Assembly: GCA_001774945.1 (NCBI GenBank)
Contig: MFBL01000015.1
Span: forward strand, 529 to 64,528
Origin: Candidatus Curtissbacteria bacterium RIFCSPHIGHO2_12_FULL_41_17
GTDB taxonomy: Bacteria; Patescibacteriota; Microgenomatia; Curtissbacterales; GWA2-41-24
DNA length: 64,000 bases
Reading direction: 5' to 3'
Position 1 is the stretch's first letter, and each line of letters opens with the position of its first letter. This document shows positions 7,024-41,936 of this stretch, piece by piece. The position numbers and the translations under genes are program-made. Under the pieces are notes generated by a model that saw only the letters and a list, made by a program, of their open reading frames with translations, had not been told where the DNA came from and ran no database searches.

Positions 7024-7245
7024 TATCCTTGCGGTGCTCGCTCAGTAACACTGAGCTGCGCGCCTAAAAGATATTATTGGTAAGTTAGGACTGCCAAAAT
7101 AGAAATAAGCAGCGCTTGCTATTTATCTATTATTGACTTAAAATATAACAGGGAATTGGGTTGTTGGAAGTTGAATAGTTCGAATCAATTTTTTTGATTC
7201 TCACTATCCGATTTCTAACTCCCGTAAATTCTCCAAGAATTTATA

Positions 7246-11531: not shown

Positions 11532-11680
11532 GAGTTTATATTCGCTCGCAGAATACCATCGAGTCAGACTCGACGGATGAATGCGAGAGCGAATACATAC
11601 TTCCGAGGATTGGAAGTATTCTGCTCGCTCATGTAAACTTGAAGAACAATACCGAGGACTCTTAGTCCTCGGAAGTTTAT
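11532..11680 (+). repeat. ~150-nt multi-hairpin intergenic repeat, copy B
   Basis: Same element as 719-865 in inverted orientation. Hairpins lie at 11556-11576, 11598-11618 and 11652-11672, with enclosing stems TATTCGCTCGC/GCGAGAGCGAATA and TAAACTT/AAGTTTA. Confidence 0.85.
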
Positions 11681-14512: not shown

Positions 14513-14541
14513 TTGACAAAAGTGGGGGATTGAAGTAATCT
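14513..14541 (+). promoter_or_regulatory. candidate sigma70-type promoter (TTGACA-17-TAATCT)
   Basis: TTGACA at 14513-14518, a 17-nt spacer, and TAATCT at 14536-14541, just upstream of the shared leader element. Confidence 0.3.
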
Positions 14542-14565: not shown

Positions 14566-14657
14566 CCCAAATTTCAAAGAAATTTGGAAAGGAAAAATGC
14601 GAGTGCGCTAAAAGTCCACAATTGTGGACGATTAACAGCACGAGCAATTTTGACGCT
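14566..14657 (+). repeat. conserved structured 5' leader element, copy 1 (shared with tuf)
   Basis: Aligns with 40232-40320. Hairpin CCAAATTTCAAAGAAATTTGG is identical, the second hairpin covaries (GTCCACAATTGTGGAC versus GTTCTCAATAGAAC), and the tail AGCACGAGCAATTTTGACG is identical and abuts the ATG. Confidence 0.8.
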
Positions 14658-14939
14658 ATGCTGCCCTTAGAACTTTCGCAAATTGTGCTTCTTACTGTTA
14701 TTATCATCCTGACAATATTCTTAGTGGTTTTGGGCTTCCAGGTTTTTTTTGTCCTGAAAGATCTAAGACTTACCCTCAAAAGAATGAATCATCTGTTTGA
14801 TGATGCCAATGAACTTGTATCGGAAGTGAAAAAACCTATCGAAAAGGCTGGCAATTTCTTTACAGCATTGACTGCAGGTGCAGGTATTATGCACTTACTT
14901 AAAAAGGGGTCAAAAAATGAGCGATCACGAGAAAAATAA
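14658..14939 (+). CDS. DUF948-like small membrane protein
   Basis: MLPLELSQIVLLTVIIILTIFLVVLGFQVFFVLKDLRLTLKRMNHLFDDANELV shows a transmembrane helix followed by a coiled-coil segment. The start is placed at the ATG that follows the shared leader; the ORF-track TTG at 14622 lies inside the leader hairpin. Confidence 0.6.
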   Translation: MLPLELSQIVLLTVIIILTIFLVVLGFQVFFVLKDLRLTLKRMNHLFDDANELVSEVKKPIEKAGNFFTALTAGAGIMHLLKKGSKNERSREK

Positions 14940-15285
14940 CCTGCCTGCCGGCAGGCAAGGTAATATTTCATCTTTAATTGTAGGCATCGTTATCGGCGCT
15001 GCCGTAACTTACTTGTTTACCAATAAAGAAGGCCAAAAGTTAAAAAATAAACTTCTTGCTGAAGGTGAAAAGCTCCTGTCTAGTTTGAGGGAGAGTTTAG
15101 AAGAAGTCGAAGAAGAGACAAAAGAAGCCAGGGAAGAAATCGGTCAGAAGTTATCTTCGGGCGTCGAAGAAGTTAAAGAAAAAGTCGAAGAGGAAGTTAC
15201 TGAAATTCCAAAGCATATAGAACAAATTCAAAAAAAAGGCCGCCGTTTCTTCTTCCGAAGAAGTCATACTTCTCAGGAAAGTTAG
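14917..15285 (+). CDS. YtxH-like protein
   Basis: A transmembrane helix (LIVGIVIGAAVTYLF) followed by TNKEGQKLKNKLLAEGEKLL and an E/K-rich helix is typical of the YtxH family. It contains an in-frame copy of the CTGCCTGCCGGCAGGCA palindrome, encoding LPAGRQG. Confidence 0.65.
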   Translation: MSDHEKNNLPAGRQGNISSLIVGIVIGAAVTYLFTNKEGQKLKNKLLAEGEKLLSSLRESLEEVEEETKEAREEIGQKLSSGVEEVKEKVEEEVTEIPKHIEQIQKKGRRFFFRRSHTSQES

Positions 15286-26135: not shown

Positions 26136-27239
26136 TTGAATATCCCAGTGAATAAAATACTCCAAATCGGTCCACCCTTTATTATTATCGCCGCACTACT
26201 TTGGAGTCTTGACGGACTTTTAAGAAGAAGCCTTTTTGTGTTACCCCCGGCTCTTATTGTGTTTTGGGAACATGTTTTAGGTGCAGTTATATTAATACCA
26301 TTTGTCCTTTTTTTAGGTCTGAAACTAGGCAAAATGACCAAGAAAGAATGGCTGGCAATTGTTTTTGTAAGCCTTTTCTCTGGAGCCCTCGGAACTATTT
26401 TTTATACGGCGGCTCTTGGTAAAGTTAATTATATCCAGTTTTCGGTTGTAGCTATGCTGCAGCAGCTTCAGCCAATCTGGACCATTACAACCGCAGCTAT
26501 TATCCTAAAAGAAAAATTGACAGGCAATTTTTTAAGGTGGGCAGCATTGGCACTTATTGCTTCTTATTTTGTTACCTTTAGGGATTTAAAAGTTAATCTT
26601 GAAAGCGGCAGCCAAACAATAGTTGCTGCAGGATTTGCTCTTGCGGCTGGGATGATGTGGGGTTCATCAACCGCATTTTCCAAAGTGGTCTTAAAGCAAG
26701 TTTCGTTTATAACGGCCACTTTTTTAAGGTTTATGGCATTGGCACTTATTGCTTCTTATTTTGTTACCTTTAGGGATTTAAAAGTTAATCTTGAAAGCGG
26801 CAGCCAAACAATAGTTGCTGCAGGATTTGCTCTTGCGGCTGGGATGATGTGGGGTTCATCAACCGCATTTTCCAAAGTGGTCTTAAAGCAAGTTTCGTTT
26901 ATAACGGCCACTTTTTTAAGGTTTATGATAGCACCTATATTTGCCCTGCTTTTTTTAGTTGGTTCAAATAAGGGCAGCAGTCTTTTTGCAATCACATTGC
27001 CTCAGGCATTTACACTGCTTGTTATTACTCTCACAACCGGAATGGTTGCTCTTCTTATTTATTATTTTGGCTTAAAAAAAACACCGGCTAGAGTTAGCAC
27101 AATTTTAGAACTTGTCTGGCCTGCTTCGGCAATTTTTATTGACTATGTTTATTTCAAAAAAACTTTATCGACGACTCAGCTGTTGGGGGTTTTTGTATTA
27201 CTTTTTGCAATTTACCAAGTGTCTAAATTCAAAAAGTGA
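26136..27239 (+). CDS. EamA/DMT-family transporter carrying an internal 64-aa tandem duplication
   Basis: Polytopic membrane protein with EamA-like repeats. The segment ALALIASYFVTF...ATFLRFM occurs twice, identically. Confidence 0.8.
   Translation: MNIPVNKILQIGPPFIIIAALLWSLDGLLRRSLFVLPPALIVFWEHVLGAVILIPFVLFLGLKLGKMTKKEWLAIVFVSLFSGALGTIFYTAALGKVNYIQFSVVAMLQQLQPIWTITTAAIILKEKLTGNFLRWAALALIASYFVTFRDLKVNLESGSQTIVAAGFALAAGMMWGSSTAFSKVVLKQVSFITATFLRFMALALIASYFVTFRDLKVNLESGSQTIVAAGFALAAGMMWGSSTAFSKVVLKQVSFITATFLRFMIAPIFALLFLVGSNKGSSLFAITLPQAFTLLVITLTTGMVALLIYYFGLKKTPARVSTILELVWPASAIFIDYVYFKKTLSTTQLLGVFVLLFAIYQVSKFKK
26544..26927 (+). repeat. perfect 2 x 192-bp in-frame tandem duplication inside the DMT gene
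   Basis: 26544-26735 equals 26736-26927 base for base. The junctions share the microhomology TTTTTTAAGGT (26528, 26720, 26912). Confidence 0.9.
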
Positions 27240-37642: not shown

Positions 37643-37791
37643 CAATTTATTTTCGCTTCGCGAAAACCGTGGATTATTAATCCTCGGATGAAGCGAAGGG
37701 AAAACATACTTCCAAGGAAGTTTGGAGCCTAGACCAAAGACGAATGATATGATAGGTGAAAACCGAGGGTTCTTAACTCTCGGAAGTTTAT
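37643..37791 (+). repeat. ~150-nt multi-hairpin intergenic repeat, diverged copy C
   Basis: Collinear with copy B, with the same stem positions but different stem sequences (TTCGCTTC/GAAGCGAA, CCGTGGATT/AATCCTCGG, ACTTCC/GGAAGT, CCGAGGGTT/AACTCTCGG). The terminal CGGAAGTTTAT is identical. Confidence 0.7.
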
Positions 37792-39975: not shown

Positions 39976-40024
39976 TAAAGAGTTTACCATGAACGAAGTC
40001 GCGTCAGACGCGACGAAGTGAAGG

Positions 40025-40089: not shown

Positions 40090-40150
40090 TGCAAGAAGTA
40101 TTAGAAGCTTTTGGTACCTGTGGTACTTTTAAATCTTCCTCTTGCATTTT
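40090..40150 (+). terminator. candidate intrinsic terminator after fusA
   Basis: A long imperfect hairpin TGCAAGA...(GTACC-TGT-GGTAC)...TCTTGCA, followed by TTTT. Confidence 0.35.
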
Positions 40151-40231
40151 GTTGTCAGAATAATATAAACTATTCCAACTAATATCAGCCTGTCAGGTTT
40201 TAACTTGGCAAAAAGCCTGATATTATTTTTA

Positions 40232-40320
40232 CCCAAATTTCAAAGAAATTTGGAGAGGAAAAATTTGAGTGCGTTTAATGTTCTCAATAGAACATGAATA
40301 GCACGAGCAATTTTGACGAC
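40232..40320 (+). repeat. conserved structured 5' leader element, copy 2 (tuf)
   Basis: See 14566-14657. An SD-like GGAGAGG is followed by a short uORF whose TGA overlaps an in-frame ATG at 40294. Confidence 0.8.
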
Positions 40321-41505
40321 ATGGCAGCAGAAAAATTTGAACGAACAAAACCACACGTAAATATTGGCACGATTGGCCATGTTGATCATGGTAAAACTAC
40401 GCTGACCAGTGCTATTACTCAGGTCCTATCCAAAAAAGGTCTGGCTCAGGCGAAATCCTTTGATCAGATAGATAATGCCCCGGAAGAGAAACAAAGAGGA
40501 ATTACTATTAATATTACTCATGTGGAGTACGAAACGGAAAAGCGTCACTATGCCCACATTGATGCCCCCGGCCATGCCGACTACATCAAAAACATGATTA
40601 CAGGTGCCGCCCAAATGGACGGTGCAATTCTGGTTGTAAGCGCTCCGGACGGGCCGATGCCGCAGACGAGAGAGCATGTTCTTTTGGCCAGACAGGTAAA
40701 CGTTCCGGCAATCGTAGTTTTTCTAAACAAAACGGATATGGTTCAGGATGCAGAACTTTTGGATCTTGTGGAACTTGAGGTGCGCGAACTTCTGGATAAA
40801 TATCAGTTTGATGGAAAAAATGCGACAATCATTCGCGGTTCGGCACTTAAAGCGATTGAAGGAGATGCACAAGCCGTTAAAGCGATTGAAGACTTAATGG
40901 CCGCAGTTGATGAAAAAATCCCCACTCCCGCAAGGGATTTAGACAAACCTTTCCTGATGCCGGTTGAAGATGTCTTTTCCATAAAAGGCCGAGGGACTGT
41001 TGTTACAGGCAGAGTTGAACGGGGCGTTATAAAAGTCAATGAGGAGATCGAAATTGTCGGAATTAGACCTACAAAAAAAACTATTGTAACAGGAGTAGAA
41101 ATGTTTAGAAAAGAGCTAGACCAGGGACAAGCCGGTGACAATATCGGCGTACTACTTCGAGGGATTGAAAAAGATGACGTTGAAAGAGGGCAGGTTTTGG
41201 CAAAGCCCGGCTCGACAACACCGCATACCGAATTCGAGGCAGAGGTGTATATCCTAACTAAAGAAGAAGGCGGACGACACACCCCCTTCTTTACCGGTTA
41301 TAGACCCCAGTTTTATATAAGAACGACCGATGTTACCGGAGAAGCAACTCTTCCCGAAGGAACAGAAATGGTTATGCCGGGAGACAATATTAAAATGAAA
41401 GTTAAACTTATCGAGCCGGTTGCTATGGAAGAAGGACTTAGATTTGCCATCCGCGAGGGTGGCCACACAGTAGGCGCCGGCGTAGTCAGCAAGATAATTG
41501 CGTAA
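40321..41505 (+). CDS. tuf: elongation factor Tu
   Basis: [41 protein letters not shown]. The start is placed at the canonical EF-Tu N-terminus. The alternative ATG at 40294 would add MNSTSNFDD. Confidence 0.95.
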
Positions 41506-41545
41506 GAGATTTGGGTCTCCTCAGAGCTTGCCAGAAGGCCGTAGG

Positions 41546-41576
41546 CCCTGAGCTTGCGAAGGGGGGATTTTTTTTG
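41546..41576 (+). terminator. candidate intrinsic terminator after tuf, built from a CCTGAGC..CGAAGGGG repeat
   Basis: CCCT..AGGGG stem followed by a T8 run (GGGGGGATTTTTTTT). Confidence 0.35.
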
Positions 41577-41936
41577 CTAGAATACCTTACTTTTGTCATT
41601 CTCGCGAAAGCGAGAATCCAGATTCTCAGTCAAGTCTTCGACCGTGAGTCCCAAAGAGACTCCGCTCAGACCGAATCGGCTGAGAATGACATGAGGGGGT
41701 CTTGGCGAAGGATTGTTCGAGCGAAGTCGAGAACTATTAAAGTATGTCAATAATAAGATTTTACTTCAAGCCTAACCGCTTAAGAATCTAACTTCTCAAC
41801 TCGACAATTCCGCTCGAAGATTATCAATTGCTGTCCGAAAGGAATTGTGATTTTGAATTTTGCCTGCCTGCCGGCAGGCAGGCACTTTAAATTTTACTTC
41901 TTGCGAAGCAAAACCTCGTAAGATCATTAAACGTCA

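Follow-up and report, generated by a model that had tools for sequence, protein, structure and literature searches.

Leader Element in the Window

The DNA analyzed here, referred to as the window, comprised 64,000 nt of contig MFBL01000015.1 from Candidatus Curtissbacteria bacterium RIFCSPHIGHO2_12_FULL_41_17. It contained two copies of a ~92-nt element, each placed in front of a start codon. Copy A preceded a gene at 14658 that encodes a membrane protein of 93 residues, and copy B preceded tuf. A preliminary description of this DNA had named the first locus a DUF948/YtxH operon. The YtxH part of the name was confirmed by Pfam for the downstream gene, whereas DUF948 was a UniRef name only, and a Pfam scan of the first gene at E ≤ 0.01 gave no match; this gene is called DUF948-like below.

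14566..14657, + strand: leader element, copy A, flanked 5′ by the native A/T-rich leader and 3′ by ATG 14658 (114 bits)
40232..40320, + strand: copy B of the leader element, which stops 2 nt short of the tuf ATG 40321 (97 bits)

The two copies were aligned end to end, as the preliminary description had it, with 79–83% identity across ~92 nt. Exact matches to the 23-nt head CCCAAATTTCAAAGAAATTTGGA numbered two in the window, as did those to the 19-nt tail AGCACGAGCAATTTTGACG, with a chance expectation of ~0.01–0.02 for either. The identical tail was located 2 nt before the ATG in both cases (14658 of the DUF948-like gene and 40321 of tuf), and an SD-like box and inner hairpins that differed in sequence yet paired were likewise present in both copies, as had been described. 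An unfiltered search of the 64 kb with a covariance model of four copies recovered copies A and B with the scores given above, and no others. The sequence TTTGACGNNATG was not enriched outside the two copies, and no copies of the apical-stem sequences were found among the other repeats of the window.

The element was composed of, from 5′ to 3′, a hairpin (H1), a GGARAGGA box, a long hairpin (P2, 55–60 nt), an unpaired GACGNN spacer, and the AUG.

14567..14587, + strand: H1 of copy A, CCAAAUUUC-AAA-GAAAUUUGG, 9 bp, −8.2 kcal/mol
14586..14593, + strand: SD-like box GGAAAGGA of copy A, in the H1–P2 linker
14594..14651, + strand: P2 of copy A, with the apical stem GUCCAC/GUGGAC at 14614–14629
14652..14660, + strand: spacer GACGCT, single-stranded, and the start codon of the DUF948-like gene
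40233..40253, + strand: H1 of copy B, from the predicted fold
40252..40259, + strand: SD-like box GGAGAGGA of copy B, mostly unpaired in the prediction
40260..40314, + strand: P2 of copy B, with the apical stem AUGUUCU/AGAACAU at 40278–40295, −13.9 kcal/mol
40315..40323, + strand: spacer GACGAC and the canonical tuf start codon, from the sequence and the predicted fold

The GGARAGGA box was made up of the 6-nt linker and the last GG of H1, and a single position (A/G) varied in it among all copies. The base of P2 was formed by pairing of AAAAU-GC-GA-GUGC with GCAC-GA-GC-(A)-AUUUU, which included a tandem G·A/A·G. The earlier picture of two hairpins was correct in that both were present, but they were not equal partners. 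The supposed second hairpin was only the tip of a P2 of 55–58 nt, and the 19-nt tail was the 3′ strand of the same P2.

Copies in Related Curtissbacteria

The covariance search proposed in the preliminary description was run on the window and on related loci. Further copies of the element occurred in tuf orthologues, in an RmlA-like operon, and in a lon leader of related Curtissbacteria (CPR, Microgenomates). A long copy was located 2 nt before the ATG in the orthologous tuf leader of L013, and a second one, also 2 nt before the ATG, in the tuf leader of L055–60, which are six independent assemblies whose contigs were reached via EF-Tu homologues. Genome and metagenome scans returned one and the same further copy (L004 = L009 = L012), with its end 1 nt upstream of the start codon (ATG) of an RmlA-like NTP_transferase gene. 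This gene was the first of an rmlB/C/D-like operon in another member of the Curtissbacteria. A decayed copy was found in the lon leader of L011, farther upstream of the start. In the tuf leaders of L015–17, the element had a short form in which H1 was followed directly by GGA-TTTGACGGC-ATG (in RNA, GGA-UUUGACGGC-AUG) and P2 was absent, and the tuf orthologues of L014, L018–21, L028–30, and L031–33 contained no element. Both hairpins, whose retention in orthologous tuf leaders the preliminary description had proposed to check, were thus kept in L013 and L055–60 but not in L015–17, with H1 only, nor in the others, with neither.

A covariance search of the related loci (~378 kb, ~181 kb non-redundant) gave no further copies, and two pattern scans of viral contigs gave chance matches only. 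In an exact-pattern scan of genome contigs for the H1 palindrome, seven of the eight matches were chance hits in other phyla, and the corresponding metagenome scan produced one chance match, L010. The protein database was also searched with the peptides encoded by the element in six frames, and no copy was found inside mis-called ORFs. In the sequences covered, the element occurs in low copy number and is bound to start codons. Every complete copy stopped 1–2 nt upstream of an ATG and was read in the sense direction. Copies scattered at random positions, the outcome envisaged for a plain repeat, were not seen, since every additional copy lay at a gene start and in the same orientation.

Predicted Fold and Covariation

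The five distinct long copies supported the same fold. Standard pairs occupied 97.8% of the cells, compared with 26–50% when the 3′ partners were slid, in a structural alignment that was registered by hand with N filler and is biased towards the structure in its pair counts. In the apical part of P2, all seven pairs showed two-sided changes, and four different stems were formed (GUCCAC/GUGGAC, AUGUUCU/AGAACAU, GUUCGCC/GGCGAAC, and AUCUCUC/GAGAGAU), as counted over the five long copies, out of five to six distinct copies available, in an alignment fitted to the structure. With MAFFT and the covariance model, the apical stems of copy B and L055 were placed one column out of register. Neither the nine H1 pairs nor the 11 pairs in the lower P2 showed two-sided changes among the five long copies. 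The tandem G·A/A·G of the lower P2 was kept in all long copies except L055, which had A·A/A·G. With copy A left out because its stand-alone sequence was mis-trimmed, the stability of P2 ranged from −14 to −22 kcal/mol in the other four long copies.

One-sided stem changes were found in H1 of L055 and L011 and in the P2 base of L004 and copy B. Because each of these changes creates a sense-strand G·U and never an A·C, the wobble pattern points to folding of the sense transcript and not to a DNA palindrome. With P2 closed, most of the SD box and of the AUG was left unpaired in the folds predicted for copy B, L055, and L004. When H1 or the 5′ strand of P2 was forced open, no alternative fold common to all copies was obtained.

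Promoters and Empty Sites at the DUF948-like Locus

The DUF948-like/YtxH operon was preceded by its own promoter, located outside the repeat.

14513..14541, + strand: native promoter of the DUF948-like/YtxH operon, TTGACA, 17 nt, TAATCT

The TTGACA-17-TAATCT promoter and the start of the coding sequence were common to the window, L022, and L054 (TATACA in L054). The protein of L022 was 89% identical with the same synteny, and that of L054 was 99% identical with a fourfold-site divergence of 8/41. Both loci lacked the element, and their leaders read ...AAAAATTAAGGT|ATG and ...GCAAATTAAAT|ATG, respectively, compared with ...AAAAATTAAATT|element|ATG in the window. The element filled precisely the junction between leader and ATG. 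The promoter is native to the DUF948-like locus, because L022 and L054 keep it without the element. The association of the repeat with start codons, considered in the preliminary description, fitted this pattern, since a relative with the same promoter was empty exactly at the ATG junction. In L054 (760–830), a different palindrome with a 12-bp stem, CTAACGACTAAcG...CTTAGTCGTTAG, replaced the element. The DUF948-like leader is a hot spot for hairpin-module exchange.

Conservation of the tuf Leader

The leader of tuf contained a conserved promoter and a further hairpin upstream of copy B.

40142..40169, + strand: conserved tuf promoter, TTGCAT, 16 nt, TATAAA(CT), ~60 nt upstream of the element
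40182..40223, + strand: upstream tuf-leader hairpin ATATCAG...CTGATAT with a 28-nt insert, in the conserved tuf 5′ UTR and outside the repeat

The promoter hexamers were kept in L015, L018, L028, and L055, with a varying spacer. The suggestion that the element itself was promoter-proximal was not upheld, as the conserved tuf promoter lay ~60 nt upstream and the promoters were native to each locus. The hairpin at 40182–40223 was nearly identical in L055 at saturated synonymous divergence. Simpler ATCAG/CTGAT hairpins were also seen at the matching place of the tuf leaders in L015, L018, L028, and L013, and the 40182–40223 hairpin may be a second conserved structure of the tuf leader.

When the window was compared with L055, the elements were identical at 81 of 89 positions (~91%) and the remaining tuf leader at 80 of 90, with the differences confined to the promoter spacer, loops, and positions that preserved pairing. 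The fourfold sites of tuf were saturated (120/174 differing), and third positions differed at 26/50 in the first 150 nt of tuf and at 28/50 in the last 150 nt of fusA. A recombination tract was rejected as the source of the leader identity, as it would not end exactly at both coding edges. Judged from this comparison, purifying selection acts on the tuf leader, element included, because the leader is ~90% identical while the synonymous sites of tuf are saturated.

The spacer between tuf and rpsJ (41506–41936) was unusually long, with 431 nt and several palindromes. At this tuf–rpsJ position, relatives contained an ORF of 88–119 residues with no Pfam match (L014 2003–2362, L015 11495–11806, L028 5231–5497, and L055 6594–6887). 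In L055 (2698–4928), fusA was present as two ORFs of 211 and 505 residues separated by a 77-nt gap, which could represent a frameshift, an assembly error, or an insertion.

Proposed Role in Translation Initiation

Neither of the two ATGs (14658 and 40321) had an SD within 20 nt, in line with the earlier observation. The GGARAGGA box was placed 61–69 nt upstream of the AUG, the final 20 nt before the AUG contained no purine box, and the spacing between P2 and the AUG was constant at 5–6 nt. The box matched the SDs of other genes in the window, where AAGGAGG-type sequences preceded rpoA (AAGGAGG), rpsE, rplP, rpsD, and fusA (GGAGGA); rpsJ, rpoB/C, infA, secY, pnp, and tuf were without an SD. Loss of the anti-SD in CPR bacteria is limited to one Parcubacteria subgroup (PMC9297842).

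The reading that we favor, with a probability of about 0.4, is that the element acts in cis as a leader cassette, a portable translation-initiation unit that would supply ribosome-binding signals to an AUG without its own SD. The cassette would sit between the promoter and leader of the gene and its start codon. Folding of P2 would bring the SD box and the AUG, far apart in the linear sequence, to within ~6–7 nt across the base of the helix, and the folded P2 would thus form a split ribosome-binding site in which the SD box serves the main AUG across P2. H1 may insulate or stabilize the 5′ side. The short form of L015–17, with GGA, 9 nt, and AUG, had the linear order of the long form minus P2. 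The preliminary description had proposed a portable high-expression module; a portable 5′ UTR or translation module fitted the data, whereas the promoter-proximal part did not.

The tuf orthologues without the element (L014, L018, L020, L028, and L031) had no SD or only a weak AAGGGA. Since these orthologues are also SD-poor, the element is dispensable. A mere spacer hairpin would leave the invariant lower stem, the tandem G·A/A·G, and the 19-nt tail unaccounted for, and some other constraint acts on them. In addition, an AUG was located 3–7 nt after the box in four of the six copies, and the SD may serve that AUG.

Upstream Reading Frames and Alternative Readings

Short upstream ORFs were found in both copies of the window.

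14597..14611, + strand: uORF ATG CGA GTG CGC TAA (MRVR*) of copy A, located inside the P2 base and beginning 3 nt downstream of AAGGA in the box
40265..40297, + strand: TTG-initiated 10-codon uORF of copy B, with a TGA that overlaps the in-frame ATG 40294; judged incidental

The TTG uORF at 40265–40297, the in-frame ATG 40294, and the NSTSNFD peptide encoded in frame in both copies had been pointed out before, and all of them were present; NSTSNFD is in frame because the 2-nt spacer sets the register. These features would be explained if the SD box directed translation of a short uORF (MRVR...) and this translation opened P2, so that termination and reinitiation feed the main AUG and, in tuf, initiation at ATG 40294 adds MNSTSNFDD to EF-Tu. 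The box-to-AUG spacing was suitable in copy A, L004, L013, and L011, which shared ATG CGA GTG CG after the box, and the stop overlapped the rmlA ATG (ATGA) in L004, was 3 nt short of the lon start codon in L011, and overlapped ATG 40294 in copy B. EF-Tu was also called with 403 residues in the window and L055. However, the uORFs varied between 4, 5, 10 (with the TTG start), 21, and 46 codons, and those of 4 and 5 codons, in copy A and L013, ended ~50 nt short of the main AUG. The shared ATG was absent from copy B, where TTG was the only possible start, and from L055, where TTG was changed to TCA and no uORF was left. The NSTSNFD frame met a TGA in L004, with a spacer of 1 nt instead of 2, and the NSTSNFDD extension was limited to gene calls of the element-bearing clade of the window and L055. 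Other extended EF-Tu homologues showed unrelated sequences, and most were annotated with 393–394 residues. ATG 40294 was buried inside the apical stem without an SD. Coupling by a uORF may occur in individual copies and is not a conserved feature; as a general account of the element it has little in its favor, and the extended EF-Tu proposed earlier is unlikely.

Control in trans is a more serious competitor, albeit one that we consider rather doubtful. Here an RNA-binding protein, an RNase, or a small ligand would read H1, the lower P2, and the tail and thereby co-control how tuf, the YtxH pair, the rml operon, and lon are translated or how stable their transcripts are. Regulation would then act on the SD box and the AUG, which would not themselves be the purpose of the element, and such control may be a layer added to the split ribosome-binding site. 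A factor of this kind, or a second constraint, is suggested because the sequence of H1, the lower P2, and the tail does not vary. The free covariation of the apical stem next to invariant H1 and lower P2 stems, the tandem G·A/A·G conserved in four of five long copies, the strong conservation of the element despite saturated synonymous sites, and the presence of stress-type genes (YtxH by Pfam, and Lon) all agreed with it. It was opposed by the lack of a match to an Rfam family, by the lack of a conserved alternative fold on forced opening of H1 or P2, and by the SD and AUG, which were not sequestered as in a simple thermometer or OFF switch. Moreover, it had no candidate factor, and the gene set was small and heterogeneous.

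A selfish or neutral mobile palindromic element (MITE-, REP-, or PATE-like), spreading as DNA, without host function, and tolerated only at sites to which it brings ribosome-binding signals itself, would account for the presence or absence at orthologous sites (L022 and L054, with the same promoter and start of the coding sequence but no element), for the patchy distribution among tuf orthologues, and for its occurrence in a genome with abundant other small palindromic repeats. It is nevertheless improbable, as no terminal inverted repeats, target-site duplication, or shared flanking target were found. The ends of the element, CCCAAATTT... and ...TTTTGACGNN, were not inverted repeats. The copy number was very low (two in 64 kb, with a single gene context in each related locus set), orientation and position were strict with a wobble pattern that fits the sense strand only, and the ~91% identity of the tuf copy at saturated divergence is inexplicable by recent transposition. 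H1 was also considered as a 9-3-9 palindromic operator for a dimeric transcription factor, being a perfect inverted repeat that was invariant in most copies and located downstream of promoter-like hexamers. This is extremely improbable, because the L013 loop is one nucleotide longer (4 versus 3 nt), the arm changes in L055 and L011 were C to U opposite G, which breaks the DNA symmetry and keeps the RNA pairing, and H1 of tuf was ~60 nt downstream of the conserved promoter. A bolder combination, in which a self-propagating 'mobile ribosome-binding site' is copied to position −1/−2 of ORFs by a start-codon-directed mechanism and puts them under a shared CPR-specific trans-acting regulator that reads the invariant surface of H1, lower P2, and tail, is a long shot. 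If true, it would define a new class of dispersed elements for post-transcriptional control.

Comparison with Known Systems

At the gathering score, Rfam returned tRNA only in the window and placed the element in no family. In a permissive scan of the element, the best sub-threshold matches had E values of 0.035–10, far below gathering. The element is a real, selectively maintained, Curtissbacteria-specific leader outside the catalogued RNA families.

The closest likeness to the split ribosome-binding site proposed here is in phage T4. Split ('accommodated') ribosome-binding sites have reportedly been described for T4 genes 38 and 25 by Nivinskas et al. in 1999 and by Malys and Nivinskas in 2009. 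In T4 gene 38 a hairpin shortens the SD–AUG distance from 22 nt to 5 nt, and in gene 25 from 27 nt to 11 nt (PMC3014915). As in these genes, the SD of the element was too distant in the linear sequence and the intervening hairpin closed the gap, here in silico. The element differed from the T4 sites in a hairpin two to three times longer, so that the ~60 nt bridged were more than twice those of T4, and in its invariant base and tail, its extra 5′ hairpin, and the repetition of the whole unit before unrelated cellular genes.

Putative mobile promoters are upstream repeats of 50–100 nt with at least 80% identity in front of non-homologous genes (Matus-Garcia, Nijveen and van Passel 2012, PMC3488235). 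In length and identity the element corresponded to them, both within and between genomes (PMC3488235). Unlike them, it had the promoter outside the repeat, kept at the empty sites of L022 and L054 and in tuf orthologues devoid of the element, and it was the 5′ UTR and ribosome-binding region that was shared.

The Leaders Compared with Dispersed Repeats and Regulatory RNAs

The Correia/CREE, ERIC, and REP/BIME families are dispersed hairpin repeats that may sit in 5′ UTRs, alter mRNA processing or expression, and show insertion polymorphism between strains. In contrast to these families, the element had no terminal inverted repeats or target-site duplication, was low-copy and in a single orientation, abutted start codons, and was under purifying selection as judged above. 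Palindrome-associated elements derived from IS200/IS605 have subterminal hairpins, a fixed target of 4–5 nt next to one end, and a cognate TnpA. Set beside these, the element had hairpins and neither terminal inverted repeats nor a target-site duplication; its left flanks differed between copies (AAATT, TTTTA, CTAAA, TTAAT, and AATTA), and the opposite strand shared CAT only. Like riboswitches, ribosomal-protein leaders, and thermometers, it had a covarying 5′-UTR structure close to where initiation takes place on genes that are highly expressed or stress-related. Unlike those leaders, it had no Rfam match, its conserved nucleotides were located in stems and not in junctions, its SD and AUG were free, and its genes had no common metabolite or autoregulator.

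Several other candidates were considered and rejected. An RNA thermometer of the fourU or ROSE type did not fit, as the SD and AUG were unpaired and the U4 run paired with A4 and not with the SD. Control by a leader peptide or uORF lacked a conserved start, length, or peptide. By eye, the GAGTGC/GCAC arms had the wrong order and spacing for CIRCE, the second repeat matched a CtsR box at 3/7 only, and the R″/R′ boxes of an integron attC site were in the wrong order with 5–6/7 matches. Also by eye, a K-turn was excluded by the lack of a 3-nt bulge beside G·A pairs, a bypass of the T4 gene 60 type by the absence of matching in-frame take-off and landing codons, and an intrinsic terminator on either strand by an inconsistent U tract.

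Other Features of the Window and Related Loci

Hairpin-forming repeats crowded the intergenic regions, and the short intergenic repeats included the palindrome families ACCGAGGACTCTTAGTCCTCGG, CCGTCGAGTCAGACTCGACGG, and GTCATTCTCGCGAAAGCGAGAATCC. Short palindromes were located at 723–755, 11648–11680, 37663–37695, and 37759–37791; at 821–852 and 11556–11587; at 39995–40020; and at 41596–41620. A GC-rich palindrome, CCTGCCTGCCGGCAGGCAGG, occurred twice, at 14940–14959 in the N-terminal coding region of YtxH, where it was read as LPAGRQG, and at 41861–41884 in the tuf–rpsJ spacer. In-frame palindromic insertions are known from other small genomes, and the YtxH copy of CCTGCCTGCCGGCAGGCAGG resembles them. 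A tandem duplication in perfect register was found at 26520–26903, with two copies of 192 nt that were 96% identical.

Two further leaders contained features of their own. A hairpin, AAATTCT-CCA-AGAATTT (7228–7245), was located 3 nt before the pnp ATG and was not conserved in L022, L023, and L026. The block GGAATTGGGTTGTTGGAAGTTGA...CCGATTTCTAACTCCC upstream of this hairpin was conserved in the window and these three loci, and from its sequence it may be a pnp/rpsO leader element. In the lon promoter of L011 (660–700), a CIRCE-like repeat, TTAGCACTC-N10-GTCTGCTAA, overlapped TTGACA-17-TATTCT, and this sequence match suggests HrcA-type heat-shock control of lon in the L011 Curtissbacteria.

Implications for Translation Control in CPR Bacteria

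CPR bacteria are uncultivated, and to our knowledge almost nothing is known of their translation control. An uncatalogued, covarying leader with its own SD at stress genes, envelope genes, and tuf, which encodes the most abundant protein, is a testable handle on initiation and on post-transcriptional control in CPR bacteria. If the element does act as a leader cassette, ribosome-binding regions, and not only promoters, would be reused between genes.
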